DNA from: an uncultured Bacilli bacterium
Lineage (GTDB): Bacteria > Bacillota_I > Bacilli_A > RF39 > UBA660
DNA length: 64,000 bases
Assembly (NCBI GenBank): GCA_934101795.1
Contig: CAKORY010000002.1
Coordinates: 25,200-89,199, forward strand
Direction: 5' to 3'
Below are positions 7,790 through 56,803 of the stretch, piece by piece. The position numbers and the translations under genes were made by a program. How positions within the stretch are numbered: position 1 is the first letter of the stretch; the number at the start of each line of letters is the position of its first letter. Below the pieces are notes generated by a model. That model made no database searches, was not told the DNA's origin, and saw nothing but the letters and a program-made list of their open reading frames with translations.

Positions 7790-8034
7790 TTGAATTAAAC
7801 TAAGATTTATGATAAACTAGTTTTAATTAACGAAGAAGGAAAGAGTAGATATCATTCGTTTCATAGAGATTTTTTGGTTGGTGGAAAAGAAAAGATGAAG
7901 ATATTCGAACATGGCTCTGGAGTTAAAAGCGGGTAATTACGTTATAAATTTTAAGTTGCATGATAAATCATGAATTAAGGTGGTACCGCGGGTTATACTC
8001 GTCCTTAGTTTGTGGTTTTTTTATTGGAGGAAAT
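7790..8034 (+). promoter_or_regulatory. T-box riboswitch-like leader (candidate Met specifier) upstream of dut-metG
   Basis: near-consensus T-box sequence aattaaGGTGGTACCGCGGg at ~7972-7991 (consensus AATTAGGGTGGNACCGCGG), followed by T-run; AUGA candidates in the upstream region. Confidence 0.55.
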
Positions 8035-11534: not shown

Positions 11535-12314
11535 ATGAAGGCAAAGAAGAGTTTAGGACAAAATTTTTTAATTGATAACAATATAATAAATAAAATTGTT
11601 GATGAAGTTTCAGCGTGTGAAGATGATTTAATTATTGAAATCGGGCCTGGAAGAGGAGCCCTTACAAGTAAACTTAAGAAAAAAGGTTGTAATTTAATTG
11701 CTTACGAACTTGATAGAGATTTAAGTAATATACTAAGTAAATTAGAAGATGAAAAATTGCATGTAATTTATGGTGATTTTTTAAAAAGTGATATAAAGGA
11801 AGATATAAAAAATATTAAATATGATAATTTGTATTTAGTTGGTAACCTTCCTTATTATATAACTACACCAATAATTGAACATATTATTGATGAAAATATA
11901 GATTTTAGTAAGTTTACAATTATGATACAAAAAGAAGTTGCAGATAGATTTATGGCTGTTGCAGGTACTAAAGATTATGGTTATATTACCTTAGTGCTTA
12001 AATATTATTTTAATATTAGTAAAGTTTGTGATGTATCTAAATATTCTTTTAATCCTGTACCAAAAGTTGAAAGTAGTGTTGTAAGTTTTGTGCCACGAAA
12101 AGATAAGTTAGATGTTGATGCTGATGGTTACTTTAAGTTTTTGAAAAATGCTTTTAGACAAAAAAGAAAAAATTTGAGAAATAATCTATATGGATTATAT
12201 AATTTGGATATTGTCTTGCAAGTGTTAAGTAAATATGATTTAGATTTAAGTGTTAGAGCGGAAAGTTTAAGTGAAGAAATATTAGTAGATATCTATAAAA
12301 GTGTTACCCGATGA
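11535..12314 (+). CDS. rsmA: 16S rRNA (adenine1518/1519-N6)-dimethyltransferase
   Basis: KKSLGQNFLID N-terminal signature, NLPY motif (GNLPYYITTP); start set at ATG MKAKK. Confidence 0.9.
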   Translation: MKAKKSLGQNFLIDNNIINKIVDEVSACEDDLIIEIGPGRGALTSKLKKKGCNLIAYELDRDLSNILSKLEDEKLHVIYGDFLKSDIKEDIKNIKYDNLYLVGNLPYYITTPIIEHIIDENIDFSKFTIMIQKEVADRFMAVAGTKDYGYITLVLKYYFNISKVCDVSKYSFNPVPKVESSVVSFVPRKDKLDVDADGYFKFLKNAFRQKRKNLRNNLYGLYNLDIVLQVLSKYDLDLSVRAESLSEEILVDIYKSVTR

Positions 12315-13141
12315 GGGTAATTTTTTTTTGGCAATTTTCATATACTTTATTGGTGATAATTATTTTGAATATAGAAAAAGGTGATTATGTAACTAGAAAT
12401 AGTTATGGTAATGATACCGTATTTAGAGTTATTAATATAAAAGATGGAATATATTATTTAAAAGGTGTGGAGGTTAGATTGGTAGCGGATGCAGAAGTTT
12501 TAGATTTAAGAAAAGAAGAGAATATCAAATCAGATGATTTACTAGATGATATTGATTTATTAGATGATAATTTAGATCGGGGGGAGTTTTTTTACTTGCC
12601 TGCGAAGGCTTTGCATATTGATTCTGATGAAGAATATCTATCAAGATGCCTAAAGTTTTACAAAAGAAATGGCATAATGGCTGTTGGCAAAAAAATAAAT
12701 GAAAAAAATGTTTATGAACAGCTTCCCATGCTTTTAAAAGAGTTTAGACCTGATATTGTGGTTATTACTGGACATGATGCTTATTATAGAAAAAAGGGAG
12801 ATGCTAAAGATATCAAGAATTATAAAAATTCGGCATATTTTGTTAAAGCAGTAAAAGCAGCAAGAAATTATGAAAAAAGCCATGATAAATTAGTTATAAT
12901 TGCTGGTGCTTGTCAAAGTGATTATGAAGAATTAATTAAGGCTGGTGCTAATTTTGCATCAAGTCCTAAGAGAGTTAATATTCATGCTTTAGATCCAGCT
13001 ATTATTGCAAGTACTGTTGCTCTTACTGAGAGAAATAAAGAAATCGATTTAAAAAAATTACTTGATAAAACAAAATATAAAGAAGATGGGATGGGAGGTC
13101 TTATATGTAATGGTCTTATGTATGTAGGTTATCCTAGATAA
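12311..13141 (+). CDS. yabG: Sporulation-specific protease YabG
   Basis: conserved rsmA-yabG-veg order; YabG-like central region (VVITGHDAY...IIAGACQSDYE); true start probably internal to the 276-aa ORF. Confidence 0.7.
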   Translation: MRVIFFWQFSYTLLVIIILNIEKGDYVTRNSYGNDTVFRVINIKDGIYYLKGVEVRLVADAEVLDLRKEENIKSDDLLDDIDLLDDNLDRGEFFYLPAKALHIDSDEEYLSRCLKFYKRNGIMAVGKKINEKNVYEQLPMLLKEFRPDIVVITGHDAYYRKKGDAKDIKNYKNSAYFVKAVKAARNYEKSHDKLVIIAGACQSDYEELIKAGANFASSPKRVNIHALDPAIIASTVALTERNKEIDLKKLLDKTKYKEDGMGGLICNGLMYVGYPR

Positions 13142-26217: not shown

Positions 26218-27174
26218 ATGAAGAAAATTGTTATATTTGGTGGAGGAAGTGGTCTTTCTCAACTTTTAAAAGGTATTAAACTTTTTCCCGTAGAAATAAC
26301 TGCGGTTGTTTCTGTTGCAGATAATGGAGGAAGTACAGGTTTACTTAGAAGAGAACTTAATATTCCCGCGGTTGGTGATATTACGAAAGTTATGCTTAGT
26401 ATGGCTGATACTAATCAAGATGTTATAGATTTAATGAATTATAGATTTACTAAGTCTAAATCTTTGGGTATTCATTCTGTTAAAAATTTGCTTTTAATTG
26501 CTTTGATGGATTTGAAGGGTAGTTTTGCTGGGGCTATGCCAGTTATGGAAAAATTACTTGATGTTAGAGGCAATGTTTTGCCTTTAACTGAAGATAATGT
26601 TAATTTGGTGGGAATTACTTCAAGTGGTAAAAAAGTGTATGGAGAGCATCAATTAACTAAGTGTGCAAATAAAATTGTAGAAGTTAAATATGATAAAGAA
26701 ATTGAGGTAAATCCTAAGGTTATTCATGCAGTCGAAGAAGCTGATTTGATTATTTTTTCATCTGGTAGTTTACTTACAAGCATTGTACCACATTTAATTA
26801 ATAAAAAGTTAGTTAATACAATTAATAAAGCTAAGGCTGATAAAGTATATATTTGTAATTTGTTTACTCAACCGGGAGAAACAGATGATTTTACTGTAAA
26901 AGATCATGTTGATTATTTAGAAAAATATTTAGGTAAAGGTAGTATAGATGTTGTTATTGCTAATAATGAAGTTATTAGTAGTGACTTAGCAAATAAATAT
27001 GCAACAGAAGAACAAAAAGATCCGGTTATTTTAGATATGCATGAACTTGATGAAAAAGATATTTATGTTATTCAAGATAAATTATTTACAATTGAAGATG
27101 GTTGGTATAGACATGATGCGCTCAAAACTGGATATTTACTTTTCTCATATTTAATGGATGGTAAGAGAAAATGA
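26218..27174 (+). CDS. yvcK: Gluconeogenesis factor YvcK (UPF0052/CofD-like)
   Basis: MKKIVIFGGGSGLSQLLKGIK N-terminus is YvcK signature; followed by whiA. Confidence 0.85.
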   Translation: MKKIVIFGGGSGLSQLLKGIKLFPVEITAVVSVADNGGSTGLLRRELNIPAVGDITKVMLSMADTNQDVIDLMNYRFTKSKSLGIHSVKNLLLIALMDLKGSFAGAMPVMEKLLDVRGNVLPLTEDNVNLVGITSSGKKVYGEHQLTKCANKIVEVKYDKEIEVNPKVIHAVEEADLIIFSSGSLLTSIVPHLINKKLVNTINKAKADKVYICNLFTQPGETDDFTVKDHVDYLEKYLGKGSIDVVIANNEVISSDLANKYATEEQKDPVILDMHELDEKDIYVIQDKLFTIEDGWYRHDALKTGYLLFSYLMDGKRK

Positions 27175-28097
27175 CATTTACTACGAGTTTAAAAGAGGAA
27201 ATAACTAAAAATAATATTAATTCTATGGAAGCTAGATATGAATTAATAGCATTTTTAAATAGTGTTGCTAAGTTTAATAAAGAAGAAATTAGTATAACTT
27301 TAGAGAATGCTAGTATTGCTAGAAGAATTTATAAAGAAATAAAAGAAATATATGGTGTTAATCCTAGTATCGTTATAAGAATGCAGAAAAGATTTAAAGT
27401 AAAACAAATATATATTCTTAATATTAAAGAAAAAGTTGATTTTATTAAAAAAGATATTAGTGTTGGAATAAAAATAGAAGTTGACGATTTGGTTAGTGAT
27501 GAGGAAAAAATAGCTTTTTTGGAAGGTGCTTTTCTTGCGGTTGGGAATGTTTCTAATCCAAGTACAAGTGGTTATCATTTAGAATTTATTTTTACTAAGG
27601 AAAGATTAGCTAAACAAGTTCTTAATTTACTTATATATTTTAAACTAAATGCTAAGCTTATTAAAAGAGGTTATAAAACTGTTGTTTATATTAAGGCTAG
27701 TGAAGATATAAGTGATTTAATTAAAAGATTTAAAGCTACTAATTCGTTATTTTATTTTGAAGATATAAGGATATATAGAGATCATAAGAATATGGTTAAT
27801 AGATTAAATAATTGCGAAATTGCTAATCAAGAAAAGACTTTTAGAACAGGACAGATGCAACTGGAAAATATTGATTATTTGAAAAATTATGATTTATATG
27901 GATTACTTGATGAAAACACTAGAATTGTTGCGGATGCAAGAGTTAAGTATCCTGAAGTTTCTATGCAAGAACTTGCAGATATTGTAACGCTTGAAAATGG
28001 TTATAAAATAGGTAAATCTGGGGTTAATCATCATTTTATTAAGATAAAAAACCTAGTTAATAGACATAAAGAAAGAAGTGAAGATTATGATAGTTAG
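27171..28097 (+). CDS. whiA: Sporulation/cell-division transcriptional regulator WhiA
   Basis: 308 aa; LAGLIDG-type degenerate homing-endonuclease-like N-domain and C-terminal HTH; conserved yvcK-whiA pairing. Confidence 0.85.
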   Translation: MTFTTSLKEEITKNNINSMEARYELIAFLNSVAKFNKEEISITLENASIARRIYKEIKEIYGVNPSIVIRMQKRFKVKQIYILNIKEKVDFIKKDISVGIKIEVDDLVSDEEKIAFLEGAFLAVGNVSNPSTSGYHLEFIFTKERLAKQVLNLLIYFKLNAKLIKRGYKTVVYIKASEDISDLIKRFKATNSLFYFEDIRIYRDHKNMVNRLNNCEIANQEKTFRTGQMQLENIDYLKNYDLYGLLDENTRIVADARVKYPEVSMQELADIVTLENGYKIGKSGVNHHFIKIKNLVNRHKERSEDYDS

Positions 28098-28584
28098 ACT
28101 TGCTGCAGATATTCAACCTGATAGTATTTTAGATGGTTCTGGTATTAGAACTGTAATTTGGTTTCAAGGCTGTTTGCATAAGTGTGAAGGATGTCAAAAT
28201 CCTGAGACTCATGATATGAATGGTGGATTTGAAATCGATACTAAAGATATTTGTGAAAAATTAAAAAATTTAAAGTATCAAACAGGTATTACATTATCTG
28301 GTGGAGATCCTTTTTTTCAAGCTAAAGGAGCTTTGGAAATAGCTAAATTTGCTAAAAGTATTGGACTTAACGTTTGGGCTTATACTGGTTTTACATATGA
28401 GGCATTGCTTGCTGGTGATAAAGATAGATTAGAACTTTTAAAAAATGTAGATGTTTTAGTAGATGGTAAATTTGTACTTGCTAAAAAGAGTTTAAATTGT
28501 AAGTTTAGGGGTAGTACTAATCAAAGACTTATTGATGTAAAAAGAAGCATGGAAGAAGGAGATATTGTTTTATATGGAGTTTAG
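28078..28584 (+). CDS. Radical-SAM activating enzyme, anaerobic RNR activase NrdG-like
   Basis: CxxxCxxC cluster motif (GCLHKCEGCQNPETH) near N-terminus, 168 aa; start could be ATG at 28087. Confidence 0.6.
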   Translation: MKIMIVRLAADIQPDSILDGSGIRTVIWFQGCLHKCEGCQNPETHDMNGGFEIDTKDICEKLKNLKYQTGITLSGGDPFFQAKGALEIAKFAKSIGLNVWAYTGFTYEALLAGDKDRLELLKNVDVLVDGKFVLAKKSLNCKFRGSTNQRLIDVKRSMEEGDIVLYGV

Positions 28585-29047
28585 TAATAATGTAAATTAT
28601 GTTATTCTTTCAAATAATGCTGATAAAAAGTTTATGTCTATGTTTGGTATGTATCAAGTAATTGATGTATTATCGTTTGAAAAACTTAAAAATACTTTAG
28701 AAATGTTTCCAAGTAAAAGAGTAGTATTTAATGAAAGTTTAAGTGTATTAAGTAATAAGGAAAAAAAAGAAATATTTGATTTATTAGATAAACAAAATAT
28801 TAATTATGTGAATATTACAAGTAATATAGAAGAATCTTTATTTGGTGATTATGTAATAGTATATGATGAAGATTCTAAAGTTCTTGAAGGTAATAGAGAT
28901 GTTGTTTTAAAGAATGAAAAAATACTTAAGAAACTAGGCTTTGGTGTACCTTTTGTGGTGGATTTATCTATACAACTTATGTATTATGATATTTTAGATA
29001 AAGTTTACTATGATGTTGATAACTTGTTGGAGGCTTTATGGAATTAA
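28565..29047 (+). CDS. Hypothetical protein
   Basis: 160 aa ORF, no motifs; occupies ecfA position upstream of truA. Confidence 0.3.
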   Translation: MFYMEFSNNVNYVILSNNADKKFMSMFGMYQVIDVLSFEKLKNTLEMFPSKRVVFNESLSVLSNKEKKEIFDLLDKQNINYVNITSNIEESLFGDYVIVYDEDSKVLEGNRDVVLKNEKILKKLGFGVPFVVDLSIQLMYYDILDKVYYDVDNLLEALWN

Positions 29048-29592
29048 GTGGTTTAAAGGGAAATATTATCGGAGTAATTAGTAAGGATTACATAGAAGAT
29101 GATTATAGCGGAAAACTTGTTAAGGATATTGTTTTAAATAAAGCAAGTGATGCTTTGAAAATGGTTGGGCTTAATGAAAATACACTTGAATGTAATTTTG
29201 ATGATTTGAGTCATGGTAATAAAAATAGAGTAATACTTGCTAGTAAACTTCAAGATAAATGTATTATTTTAAATAATTTTAGTATTGGATTAACAAGTAA
29301 AGATATAGAATTTTTTAAAAAATTATTTAAAAGAATAACTAGTTATGGAAGAAAAATAATTTTAGTAGATGTAAATAGTAATTTGTTTTTTAATCTTGTG
29401 GATAAAGTGTATGTTATAAGCGATGAAAAAATTTATGAAACAAGTAATATGTTTGATAAAACTTTGGGTGAATATATTGATTTACCAAATTTAGTGGAGT
29501 TTACTAGCCTTAGTGAAAATAAAGGAATTAAAATAAATCATTATAAAGAATTAGATGAACTTTTAAAGGCTATTTATAGGATTAAGTCATGA
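29038..29592 (+). CDS. Degenerate ABC-ATPase-like protein (catalytically dead NBD relic)
   Basis: ABC signature-like LSHGNKNRVILASKL and Walker-B-like IILNNFSIGL with D/E replaced by N; no Walker A in this or preceding ORF. Confidence 0.45.
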   Translation: MELSGLKGNIIGVISKDYIEDDYSGKLVKDIVLNKASDALKMVGLNENTLECNFDDLSHGNKNRVILASKLQDKCIILNNFSIGLTSKDIEFFKKLFKRITSYGRKIILVDVNSNLFFNLVDKVYVISDEKIYETSNMFDKTLGEYIDLPNLVEFTSLSENKGIKINHYKELDELLKAIYRIKS

Positions 29593-30308
29593 GATATTTA
29601 ATTAGATTTAGTTATGATGGAACATTATTTCATGGTTTTCAAAGGCAAAATGATGTTAAAAGTGTGCAAAAAACTTTGGAAGATGCTTTAAGTAAACTTT
29701 TGAGTGTGGAAATAGTTATAAAGGGTAGTGGAAGAACTGATGCTGGTGTTCATGCTTTGGATCAATGTGCTCATTTTGATTATGATGGTAAAATTACTAA
29801 TAAAGAAATTTTTAAATTAAATGAAATATTAAATGATGAAATAGTAATAAAGAATTGTAAAAAAGTACCTAATGATTTTCATGCTAGACATAATGTGAAG
29901 AAAAAGACTTATGTTTATAAAATAAATAATGGTATGTATAAAAAATGTTATGATGGTTATTATTTTCAAATTAAATATTCTTTGGATATAAAAAAAATGA
30001 AAAAAGCAAGTAAGTTGTTTGTTGGAGTTCATGATTTTCATAATTTTGTAAGTGGATTTAGAGTTGATTATACTACTTGTATATACAAGATTAATATTAA
30101 AAGACGTGGAGATATTGTTCTTGTGAAGTTCGTGGGTGCAGGTTTTTATCGTTATATGGTTCGTCATTTAGTTGGTGCTTTACTTGATGTTGGTAGAGGT
30201 AAGGTAGACATTAATGTGATAGAAAATATGCTTTTAAATGAAAATTTAAATAAAAAGCTTAGTATAGTGCCAGCGGATGGACTTTATTTGGTTGAGGTAG
30301 ATTATTAG
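29589..30308 (+). CDS. truA: tRNA pseudouridine(38-40) synthase
   Basis: N-terminal LIRFSYDGTLFHGFQRQ and catalytic RTDAGVHA motif. Confidence 0.92.
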   Translation: MRYLIRFSYDGTLFHGFQRQNDVKSVQKTLEDALSKLLSVEIVIKGSGRTDAGVHALDQCAHFDYDGKITNKEIFKLNEILNDEIVIKNCKKVPNDFHARHNVKKKTYVYKINNGMYKKCYDGYYFQIKYSLDIKKMKKASKLFVGVHDFHNFVSGFRVDYTTCIYKINIKRRGDIVLVKFVGAGFYRYMVRHLVGALLDVGRGKVDINVIENMLLNENLNKKLSIVPADGLYLVEVDY

Positions 30309-30378
30309 TTTCTTAATCGTTGACATTATTACTTTATCGGAGTAAAATAACAACTTGTGATGAAGGAGATATAAGGTT

Positions 30379-30948
30379 ATGAATAGAATTAAAAACGGAA
30401 TAAAATATAAAGTTAAGAAAATAAGTAAAAATAATAATTTTAAACTTAGAGAAACAGCGTTAGAAATGGGAACAGTTATATTTATAAATCGAGCTTTGAA
30501 ATGCCAAAATGCATATGATCAAGCTCTTTTTGCGAGTGCTGCTGCGGGAATGTGCGCTAGTACCTTGTTTTTTAGTACTTTTATAATTGAGTTAAAGAAA
30601 TATATTAAGAAATATGATTATTTAGAAAATTATTTACAAAGAATGTCATTTGATAAAGCTATAAAATATTGTGATCGTAAATTTAGTAAGACTAATATTA
30701 ATGAAAATAAAGTTTCTCAATTAGTTGGAATTGAAATTGTTTTTGGTTTATTGATGTTATTTGCTACAAGGTTTTTAAAAATAGATAATTGTGCTGAATT
30801 TATAAAAAGTATTATAATTATATTTAGTTCTTTGTTACTTGTTGATGGTGTTAATAATATTTTTAAATCACTTTTTTTAATGAAAGAAATGTATTATTAT
30901 CAAAATAAATCTAAAGATTTGGAAAATGTTAGAAATTTGAAAAAATAA
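30379..30948 (+). CDS. Hypothetical membrane protein
   Basis: 189 aa with 3-4 predicted TM segments; no motif. Confidence 0.35.
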   Translation: MNRIKNGIKYKVKKISKNNNFKLRETALEMGTVIFINRALKCQNAYDQALFASAAAGMCASTLFFSTFIIELKKYIKKYDYLENYLQRMSFDKAIKYCDRKFSKTNINENKVSQLVGIEIVFGLLMLFATRFLKIDNCAEFIKSIIIIFSSLLLVDGVNNIFKSLFLMKEMYYYQNKSKDLENVRNLKK

Positions 30949-30956
30949 GGATAGAT

Positions 30957-30985
30957 TTGACATTTGGTGTGGAATAATGTACAAT
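30957..30985 (+). promoter_or_regulatory. Sigma-A-type promoter TTGACA-17-TACAAT
   Basis: ttgaca tttggtgtggaataatg tacaat. Confidence 0.5.
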
Positions 30986-31398
30986 ATTTCGTAACAAATT
31001 GGGGCTTGTTATGAAATATATAAATTTTCTTCGCGTGAGTATGTTGTTAAAAATATTAAACATTGTAAGTGGGGTATTTTAAGTAAAGTTTATTATAACT
31101 TTATGAAGTTAGCTACATTTTCATCTGTTAGTACAATGTTTTTATGGGACTTTATTCACAACTTGCAATGATGAAGAATGTAGATGAGTTGAGATATAAG
31201 AGATTATATAAATGAATTTGCTCTTAGATGTCAAACTAAAGAGAATTTAGCAATGAACTTGTATTAAGAGAAGTTGTTGATGATACTATTTTAGAAAAAA
31301 ATAAGTTACAAACAATGAAAGATATGAGAGAATTGCTTAATAAAATAGTGCAAATTTAAAGAAATTTGTAAAAATATAGAGAAAATGGCTAAAAACGT

Positions 31399-31427
31399 TT
31401 GACTTTTGGTCATTTTTTTCATATAAT
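31399..31427 (+). promoter_or_regulatory. Sigma-A-type promoter TTGACT-17-TATAAT upstream of rplM
   Basis: ttgact tttggtcatttttttca tataat; 80 nt upstream of rplM start. Confidence 0.6.
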
Positions 31428-31506
31428 TTTAATCGGTACATTTTATTTATGTGATTTGTTTAGTCGTGGGAAAATTAAACAGAAAACATGATGAAAGGAT
31501 TAGTAT

Positions 31507-32385: not shown

Positions 32386-32417
32386 CCTCATGAACCTTTG
32401 GTTTGTGAGGTTTTTTG
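32386..32417 (+). terminator. Rho-independent terminator after rpsI
   Basis: cctcatgaacc ttt ggtttgtgagg tttttt. Confidence 0.8.
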
Positions 32418-56161: not shown

Positions 56162-56803
56162 TTATTTTATTTTTTTCTTTCTATTTAAATTAGGAAAAGC
56201 TTTTAGTATTCTTTCGTAAACATATAAGTCATTTTTAATAAATTTAGAAATGGCTTTTTTTATATCAATCGTTGAGTCTTTCTTGTCTTTGGCAACTAGT
56301 TTTATTTTAAATACTATAATTAAAGAAATTACAATGTCTACGATAAAAATTGTGATTAAAATTATTGATATTATAAGTATTACTTTTAAAGAAAAATTAT
56401 TCATAACATTTATAAGATATGGTGTTACATATTTTATGGCAAGAGCTCCGAGTATTGAAAATGGGGTCATTGTTTCAAGACATATTCTACCATTAAGGTT
56501 ATATTTCATGTTTGTATAATCCCACCACCTTAATTTAAATATTTTTTCCATGATATAGCTAGTAGTATATTCTAGTAAAGAACAAATGAACATTGTTAAA
56601 ATAAATAATACTATAAAATTATTAGTATAACTTTTTAAAAGAAAATATAAAAGTAATGAACCAAAGCCATATATTGGACAACATGGACCAAGTAAAAAGC
56701 CTCGATTGACAAATTTATGTTCATTATAAAGACTTAAGATTACTTCCATAAGCCAACCTAAAAAGGAATAAATAAAAAATAATATAGAATAAGTATAGAA
56801 CAT
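56162..56803 (-). CDS. Membrane protein of putative ABC-transporter type IV (CmpB-like) family
   Basis: N-terminal FIYSFLGWLMEVI...NRGFLLGPCCPIYGFG pattern typical of PF06541-type proteins; 213 aa. Confidence 0.45.
   Translation of the reverse strand: MFYTYSILFFIYSFLGWLMEVILSLYNEHKFVNRGFLLGPCCPIYGFGSLLLYFLLKSYTNNFIVLFILTMFICSLLEYTTSYIMEKIFKLRWWDYTNMKYNLNGRICLETMTPFSILGALAIKYVTPYLINVMNNFSLKVILIISIILITIFIVDIVISLIIVFKIKLVAKDKKDSTIDIKKAISKFIKNDLYVYERILKAFPNLNRKKKIK

Follow-up and report, generated by a model that had tools for sequence, protein, structure and literature searches.

Truncated, motif-less remnants of the EcfA1 and EcfA2 ATPases are conserved directly upstream of truA in uncultured gut Bacilli

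Energy-coupling factor (ECF) modules have been regarded as indispensable motors of vitamin uptake in Firmicutes and Mollicutes, minimal genomes included. In group II ECF transporters, EcfA1 and EcfA2 (EcfA-EcfA', CbiO family) formed the ATPase heterodimer, represented by structures from L. delbrueckii (5D3M, 5JSZ and 8BMR) and T. maritima (4HLU). Here, we analyzed a 64,000-nucleotide (nt) stretch of contig CAKORY010000002.1 from an uncultured Bacilli bacterium, referred to below as the window. It contained two short open reading frames, ORF1 and ORF2, located directly before truA, the gene that canonically follows ecfT. An initial annotation, made from the sequence alone, had proposed that they stood in place of the expected ecfA-ecfA'-ecfT genes. 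Their coordinates and strand were confirmed, truA followed directly with an ATGA overlap, and no ecfT was found between ORF2 and truA in the window. The corresponding features were as follows (aa, amino acids).

28574..29047, + strand: ORF1, ecfA1 remnant as judged by TIGR04520, 157 aa; alternative TTG start at 28565
29038..29592, + strand: ORF2, ecfA2 remnant, 184 aa (TIGR04521; AlphaFold (AF2) model; Foldseek)
29038..29047, + strand: ORF1/ORF2 overlap ATGGAATTAA, 10 nt, ORF1 stop with ORF2 start (from the sequence)
29589..29592, + strand: ORF2/truA overlap ATGA, 4 nt, ORF2 stop with truA start (from the sequence)
29589..30308, + strand: truA, tRNA pseudouridine 38-40 synthase (TIGR00071 at an E-value of 6.9e-56, exceeding the cut-off)

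The pair resembled EcfA1/EcfA2 in its descent (best or near-best models, PDB matches and fold), in the order A1, A2, in the 10-nt overlap, and in the position upstream of truA-rplM-rpsI. It also retained the ECF-specific C-terminal domains, including the terminal Leu-Trp (LW) of A1. However, the two proteins had 157 and 184 aa in comparison to ~270-290 aa, and they lacked Walker A, the Q-loop, LSGGQ, the Walker-B Asp-Glu, the H-loop His and an adjacent EcfT. Longer dead-motif sets from gut and rumen Bacilli (L049-L131; P0335-P0370) occupied the same locus, shared the A2 motif [DE]L[ILM]K[ADE][IV]YR and the A1 ending ...LWK/N, and were likewise devoid of the A2 P-loop and of both the catalytic Glu and the H-loop His. 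Unlike the pair, these were full-length or ~205-aa proteins, their A1 usually had Walker A, and about half of the sets kept a degenerate EcfT.

The degenerate sites of heterodimeric ATP-binding cassette (ABC) transporters, such as TmrAB, TM287/288 and nucleotide-binding domain 1 (NBD1) of CFTR, have likewise lost the signature glycines along with the catalytic Glu and the H-loop His although the domain itself is retained, and the pair resembled an extreme form of them. However, those proteins kept one consensus site, ATP binding at the degenerate site and coupling to a membrane domain, whereas the pair had lost both sites and the membrane partner. The pair also had in common with pseudoenzymes that the fold was conserved under purifying selection while catalytic residues were gone. 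Pseudoenzymes, such as pseudokinases and pseudo-ATPases, are a concept rather than a family and comprise dead paralogues retained as scaffolds or regulators. In contrast to pseudoenzymes kept as paralogues, ORF1 and ORF2 were orthologous replacements and not extra paralogues. Literature searches identified no account of truncated or dead EcfA proteins, nor of the ECF status of these lineages. As far as these searches showed, the truncated, stand-alone pseudo-ATPases ORF1 and ORF2 were a family pair of ABC origin, with documented intermediates, that had not been described before, and the same was true of the longer dead-motif sets.

ORF2 was a remnant of EcfA2 and matched its C-terminal 60%. 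The TIGR04521 profile (ECF_ATPase_2) aligned with ORF2 residues 29-179 over profile positions 117-277 of 279 at an E-value of 3.5e-11; the score of 42.7 bits was below the equivalog cut-off of 330. Pfam ABC_tran gave no significant ORF2 match (13.5 bits, E-value 0.11, cut-off 25). A search of PDB with the ORF2 profile retrieved ABC domains in general, EcfA2 among them at 1e-7 to 1e-5. The AF2 model was confident and compact, with a predicted local distance difference test (pLDDT) score of 89.2 and a predicted template-modelling (pTM) score of 0.81. Its top Foldseek matches were the EcfA2 chains 7nnu_B, 6zg3_B and 5jsz_B at 26% identity and a query-based template-modelling score of ~0.65-0.7, and the Foldseek probability of similarity to ABC domains was 1.00, with a query template-modelling score (TMq) of 0.65-0.75 over the retained part. 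An ABC nucleotide-binding-domain fold was found for ORF2 only, the ORF1 model being too weak to judge. In an alignment with longer relatives, a single internal deletion accounted for the loss of the P-loop together with its helix, and also of the antiparallel beta subdomain and the Q-loop, while the strand leading into the P-loop (G-x-I-I-G-V) was retained. The best-conserved part was C-terminal, with the pattern Y.D.P.iveF...G....Y.eld.LlKAIyRiKs, and in the window this protein ended with ...ELLKAIYRIKS.

Two motifs of ORF2 named in the initial annotation were found at the expected places, both within the stretch DDLSHGNKNRVILASKLQDKCIILNNFSIGL.

29206..29250, + strand: ORF2 signature-like motif LSHGNKNRVILASKL, residues 57-71 (sequence and column counts)
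29263..29292, + strand: ORF2 Walker-B-like strand and D-loop IILNNFSIGL, residues 76-85, with the acidic pair absent

In the signature, the Leu was present in 46/46 orthologues and the Ser in 44/46, and both Gly residues and the Gln of LSGGQ were unconserved. The Asn-Asn that had been noted in place of the Walker-B acidic pair was correct for the window but did not hold across the family, where the first position was V, N, I or Y and the second was N or D. The H-loop position was N. The expected relationship of ORF2 to ABC nucleotide-binding domains was borne out by the TIGR04521 and EcfA2 fold matches, though the ABC_tran E-value was only 0.11.

An ABC relic had previously been recognized in ORF2 alone. 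ORF1 was an EcfA1 relic as well, and its start had been placed at TTG 28565 although ATG 28574 was the likely one, because 46/46 orthologues used that ATG and public gene callers predicted 157 aa. The TIGR04520 profile (ECF_ATPase_1) matched residues 51-159 (numbering of that search) over profile positions 156-269 of 269 at an E-value of 2.5e-11, with a score of 43.5 bits, below the equivalog cut-off of 315. A Pfam ABC_tran (PF00005) search produced no ORF1 match. In PDB, the ORF1 family profile found the EcfA1 chains 8bmr_A, 5d3m_A and 5jsz_A at E-values of ~1e-12, and ORF1 residues 49-157 aligned with residues 163-276 of the EcfA1 chain, from the Walker-B strand through the C-terminal Leu-Trp. 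Judged from these alignments, ORF1 was a remnant of EcfA1 without the first ~80 residues and part of the helical subdomain. The mapping of residues 1-48 was ambiguous: by eye they could be P-loop-like, but alignment via intermediates placed them on the signature region, the helical subdomain and the strand of the Q-loop. Two elements were delimited more clearly.

28718..28738, + strand: ORF1 Walker-B-like strand RVVFNES (EcfA1 alignment and column counts)
28886..29044, + strand: ORF1 C-terminal ECF-specific domain, EG...EK.LK.LG.G.PF.vDLS.QL.YY...LWN (conservation and alignment with the EcfA1 C-terminus)

The canonical Walker-B Asp was replaced by N in 37/46 orthologues; the Glu position was E in 29/46 and otherwise N, D or G. 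The H-loop His position was S in 41/46. A regular-expression match to 'hhhhDE' was rejected as the Walker B of ORF1, because it corresponded to the strand VIVYDE after the H-loop. The C-terminal domain was the best-conserved part of ORF1 and was kept through every stage of the series described below.

The absence of a P-loop that had been pointed out for both window ORFs extended to the whole clade: Walker A (G-x4-G-K-[ST]) was found in 0/46 ORF1 orthologues, 0/46 ORF2 orthologues and 0/324 database relatives (120 + 204). Neither LSGG nor the Walker-B acidic pair was present in any orthologue of either ORF (n=46). Moreover, the Q-loop region was deleted in both, from the P-loop strand to the late helical subdomain in ORF2 and up to the signature helix in ORF1. 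In ABC complexes, those of the ECF type included, the coupling helices of the membrane subunit (EcfT in ECF modules) sit in a groove made by this region, with Arg-Asp contacts (PMC4820897). The EcfT docking groove, namely the Q-loop region with its conserved Asp, was accordingly missing from the pair. On the other hand, the ECF-specific C-terminal domain was present in both proteins, and their alignments reached the profile ends (269/269 for ORF1 and 277/279 for ORF2). Conservation of the extreme ends came partly from dual coding (the 10-nt overlap and the Shine-Dalgarno sequences of ORF2 and truA). Both proteins were soluble, having no hydrophobic segment; ORF1 was acidic and ORF2 about neutral. 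Judging by the lost motifs, the pair is predicted to be unable to bind or hydrolyze ATP in the ABC manner or to energize a transporter, and labelling it as an ECF transporter ATPase would be incorrect. The earlier view of catalytically dead ecfA-ecfA' relics at the ancestral position before truA, with ecfT gone, was supported.

The Pfam field was '-' for all listed family members of both ORFs, and public records of the pair were mostly unnamed or otherwise 'hypothetical protein', with one likely mis-annotation. Namely, the ORF1-family member P0161, seen on 450 contigs, was named 'ethanolamine utilization protein EutQ (cupin superfamily)' by one source.

A scan with one genome per species yielded 45 other loci, which together with the window gave 46 species-level genomes. 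The 45 loci belonged to uncultured Bacilli of the gut, with the labels 'Tenericutes', Clostridium sp. CAG:609, Firmicutes bacterium CAG:460 or Candidatus Onthocola; the last of these was placed by NCBI in Bacilli incertae sedis. The gene order whiA-(nrdG)-ORF1-ORF2-truA was observed in 46/46 loci, with nrdG present in 35 of them and absent from 11. Both ORFs had an ATG start in 46/46, ORF1 with 155-158 aa and ORF2 with 180-186 aa. Their overlap was 10 nt in all 46 genomes, the ORF2/truA overlap was 4 nt in all 44 with a complete truA, and neither ecfT nor any other gene was found between ORF2 and truA in 46/46. Amino-acid identity to the window proteins was 44-89% for ORF1, 49-85% for ORF2 and 55-86% for truA, and synonymous sites were saturated for most pairs. 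In the databases, ORF2 was represented by at least 167 clusters, of which all 120 listed had 180-188 aa with identity down to ~50%; the ORF1 profile matched 1017 clusters, the listed ones having 157-158 aa.

Selection was estimated as the ratio of nonsynonymous to synonymous substitution rates (dN/dS) by the Nei-Gojobori method (NG86) from 21 close pairs with a reference dS of 0.08-0.6, since all-pairs values were distorted by saturated dS. The ratio was 0.18 for ORF1, 0.18 for ORF2, 0.145 for truA, 0.08 for yvcK and 0.08 for whiA. For ORF1 and ORF2, it was unchanged in the N- and C-terminal halves and without the overlapping ends. Thus, selection on the pair was purifying, acted at the level of the protein and was comparable in strength with that on the truA enzyme next door. 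None of the signs of pseudogenes (broken frame, variable length, patchy presence, dN/dS of ~1) was observed, and the frames were intact in 46/46.

Relatives outside this clade formed a graded series. The ORF2 profile was run against 1.84 billion representative proteins, and a scan of metagenomes for genomic contexts gave 77 loci. The protein matches were a continuum that shared the C-terminal motif [DE]L[ILM]K[ADE][IV]YR, and they fell into classes of 181-188 aa, of 204-211 aa, of 260-280 aa without Walker A, signature and Walker B, and of 265-283 aa with GxxGSGK[TS], LSxGE and hhhhDEP. Every length class occupied the same locus. The canonical stage was represented by locus L053 (7216-9567), where rplQ was followed further along by ecfA1 (264 aa), ecfA2 (274 aa), ecfT (250 aa; CbiQ at an E-value of 7e-25) and truA. 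There, A1 ended at 8010 and A2 started at 8001, which was the same 10-nt junction as in the window pair. The L053 proteins were asymmetric: the A1 signature was LNTNQ rather than LSGGQ and the A2 H-loop was S-K-D rather than S-H-D. This suggested that one ATP site was already degenerate before the wholesale loss.

At the next stage (36 loci), dead-motif proteins of full length (A1 ~262 aa, A2 ~275 aa) were followed by a T-like gene. Walker A was present in 33/33 A1 proteins and 1/36 A2 proteins of this class. In A1, xIDD replaced the Walker-B Asp-Glu, the Q-loop Gln was absent, and T-S or T-T stood in place of the H-loop S-H. The T-like protein had lost the coupling-helix arginine motif ALRFIP, and in L051 (4508-6853) it matched CbiQ at an E-value of only 2.5e-4 and in the N-terminal half. 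Considering that A1 of these longer relatives kept only the P-loop, their sequences suggest an earlier stage that may have bound ATP without hydrolyzing it. Annotation pipelines probably count such dead-motif ecfA1-ecfA2-ecfT triplets (L049, L051, L055-L094) as working ECF modules. In a further 15 loci, full-length A1 and A2 were directly followed by truA without a T gene. Another 15 loci without T had a short A2 (<250 aa, mostly ~200-210 aa) and an A1 of 149-248 aa, again with truA directly after. The window clade (157 + 184 aa) was the most reduced stage. Accordingly, TIGR04520 scores were 239 bits for L053, 113 for L051 and 43 for the window; TIGR04521 scores were 250 for L053, 122 for L051, 43 for L050 with its ~205-aa A2 and 43 for the window. 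The genes truA-rplM-rpsI came directly after the pair, which is the arrangement of the ancestral operon of Bacilli. Since the junctions and the locus were the same, the pair arose in place from ecfA1 and ecfA2 and not from an imported paralogue.

Other ECF components were searched for with the ORF1, ORF2 and EcfT profiles, and the 737 kb of clade sequence around the locus contained no EcfA or EcfT. The ABC ATPases in the clade neighborhoods were all unrelated (FtsE, GlnQ-like, exporters, TagH-like, MacB-like), and those elsewhere in the window were FtsE, two MsbA-like exporters and one GlnQ-like protein. Among the membrane proteins tested in the window, no ECF S-component or CbiQ was detected. 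For this locus, the proposed loss of ECF vitamin uptake was plausible.

We interpreted ORF1 and ORF2 as a non-catalytic, EcfT-independent and probably heterodimeric pseudo-ATPase pair that was derived in place and kept by selection, and we assigned a probability of roughly 60% to this interpretation. It fits the non-catalytic ABC-like protein that the initial annotation had offered as one of its options. All nucleotide-binding and hydrolysis motifs were lost in these uncultured gut Bacilli of low GC content. In-frame deletions then took the P-loop, the Q-loop and the EcfT-docking parts, and ecfT itself was lost. Two small soluble proteins are left, each consisting of the ECF-specific C-terminal domain and the central beta-sheet core of the ABC domain. 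Most likely, the two are produced by coupled translation along the whiA-(nrdG)-ORF1-ORF2-truA chain and associate, via the C-terminal domains that both have kept, as a heterodimer similar to EcfA1/EcfA2. Its putative role would be independent of transport and would require neither nucleotide nor EcfT. In the 2013 work of Karpowich and Wang, the C-terminal domains reportedly formed the EcfA-EcfA' dimer contact. In solved ECF modules, these domains belonged to the EcfA-EcfA' heterodimer (PDB 4HLU), and pairing through them would fit the observation that the model of ORF1 alone was disordered exactly there (residues 124-157).

Several observations weighed against this interpretation. The AF2 monomer of ORF1, built from a shallow alignment, had a pLDDT of 62 with residues 124-157 below 50, and its fold match to EcfA1 was weak (template-modelling score of 0.22). 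In a mirror-tree analysis, rate covariation between ORF1 and ORF2 (partial r of 0.40) was not above that with truA (0.38 and 0.50), so that no signal specific to an ORF1-ORF2 complex emerged. The NG86 ratios were approximate in a genome with 26% GC and were judged only against the neighboring genes, and selection was the single line of evidence that pointed to a new function. Moreover, the stepwise shrinkage also resembles slow reductive evolution, and some of the constraint could be indirect.

A broader version, which we consider tentative and somewhat doubtful, is that the ECF module was converted stepwise, across the whole radiation of fast-evolving uncultured gut and rumen Bacilli, into something other than a transporter motor. 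Namely, an A1/A2/T set that bound ATP without hydrolyzing it, with the A1 P-loop as the only one left, would have become a soluble pair of mini-domains, independent of nucleotide and EcfT and represented by ORF1 and ORF2, with a new role and co-translated with TruA, as a new stand-alone pseudo-ATPase family.

The alternative that survived best, although we regarded it as unlikely, was that the two frames were kept open only in cis for translational coupling into truA, each gene of the overlapping chain depending on translation of its predecessor. In this case the proteins would be idle, and the constraint would reflect avoidance of toxic misfolding together with the overlapping start, stop and Shine-Dalgarno signals. 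The invariance of the 10-nt and 4-nt overlaps across the clade genomes was in line with such a role. The Shine-Dalgarno sequence of ORF2 (GGAGG at 29029-33) was within the ORF1 coding sequence, and that of truA (AGGA at 29578-81) was within the last ORF2 codons. No terminator-like site was found between yvcK-like/whiA and truA, the sole convincing one being located after rpsI (32386-32410), and promoter-like sites were not enriched inside the gene chain. In addition, in-frame shortening across the lineages always kept the truA junction. However, the dN/dS of 0.18 was uniform over both genes, interiors included, and was close to the value for truA. Their lengths were fixed in 46 species despite saturated synonymous sites, and no clade species (of the 46) had a complete deletion of the pair. 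Polar residues of ORF2 were conserved (K41, S58, K70, K94, D122, D148 and R181, as sequence positions only). The Shine-Dalgarno of truA, 7 nt upstream of the gene, was its own, and in the relatives L089, L090 and L095 the A2/truA overlap was absent.

It was less probable still that the pair remained part of an ECF-type transporter as structural or regulatory subunits. In that case its membrane partner, whether an EcfT or a different protein, would be encoded at another place in the genome, and a second, intact ATPase pair might act alongside. The searched sequence comprised the 64-kb window and 737 kb of clade loci rather than whole genomes, which left room for such a partner, and the 36 related loci with a T-like gene beside equally motif-dead A1 and A2 demonstrated that coexistence was possible. 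On the other hand, the Q-loop and the neighboring EcfT-docking segments were deleted in both ORFs, ecfT was absent at the locus in 46/46 with no EcfT-like ORF in the 737 kb, the tested membrane proteins of the window included no S-component or CbiQ, and the T-retaining relatives had themselves lost ALRFIP. Ordinary decay, in which two recent ecfA/ecfA' pseudogene fragments happened to be open by chance, was raised by the initial annotation and would agree with the truncation, the loss of all motifs, and the lack of a Pfam domain and of any name beyond 'hypothetical protein', but it was very improbable considering the full-length genes with identical boundaries that 46 species-level genomes and many hundreds of clusters from metagenomes shared, the fixed overlaps, the large families, the dN/dS of 0.18 and the compact ORF2 model (pLDDT 89). 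Conservation of the ORFs as a distinct family had been listed beforehand as one half of an outcome that would speak against the relic proposal, and such conservation was what the comparison with relatives revealed; as to the other half, an intact ecfAA'T elsewhere, the 737 kb of clade loci included no EcfA or EcfT.

The pseudo-ATPase interpretation has several implications. A large and abundant group of the human and animal gut had only motif-less miniatures at the ancestral locus, yet these were under selection, and one ORF1 variant alone was present on 450 contigs. The series can be considered as a natural dissection of the EcfA/EcfA' parts that can be lost and of the order of their loss, and it points towards a role of the EcfA-EcfA' scaffold for which ATP and EcfT are both dispensable. 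Metabolic reconstructions should not count the pair as an ECF transporter; its longer dead-motif relatives score as ABC_tran and are probably counted. If these genomes are truly without an ECF module, then the bacteria must acquire vitamins in some other way, a point of relevance to their cultivation.

The pair was a part of an overlapping gene chain, with yvcK-like and whiA (together 26218..28097) upstream within the same chain in all genomes. The other genes around the pair in the window were the following.

26218-27174, + strand: yvcK-like gene, upstream part of the chain
27171-28097, + strand: whiA, upstream part of the chain
28078-28584, + strand: nrdG, anaerobic ribonucleotide reductase activase (TIGR02491 at an E-value of 1.6e-45)
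30379-30948, in the window: 189-aa hydrophobic ORF, no family match

The nrdG gene overlapped ORF1 by 11 nt and also overlapped whiA, and no nrdD was located beside it in the window. Downstream of truA, the 189-aa hydrophobic ORF was followed by rplM and rpsI. This membrane ORF was considered as an EcfT remnant and rejected, since it had no match to the T profile and was present only in the nearest relatives (L001 and L006). The truA-rplM spacer was the variable part of the locus; its length in different species was between ~150 nt and over 3 kb, and in L029, L030 and L036 it contained an unrelated ORF of ~210 aa. No Rfam family was found in the region; upstream of rplM (30949-31506) none reached the threshold, including the ribosomal-protein L13 leader. 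Three promoter-like sites with 11/12 matches were located at 30320, 30957 and 31399.

The window had a G+C content of ~26%, and its + strand held nearly all genes (~57 of the 64 long ORFs). GC skew was positive in all 2-kb bins of the whole window (0.09 to 0.49). Together, the skew and the strand bias were consistent with a single replichore with a strong leading-strand gene bias. A 213-aa membrane protein encoded at 56165-56803 on the - strand matched PF06541, 'putative ABC-transporter type IV' (CmpB), at 5e-50 and had no adjacent ABC ATPase. Finally, a YabG sporulation peptidase was encoded at 12311-13138 (PF05582, 3e-88) in this small low-GC genome, suggesting that the lineage keeps at least part of the sporulation machinery.

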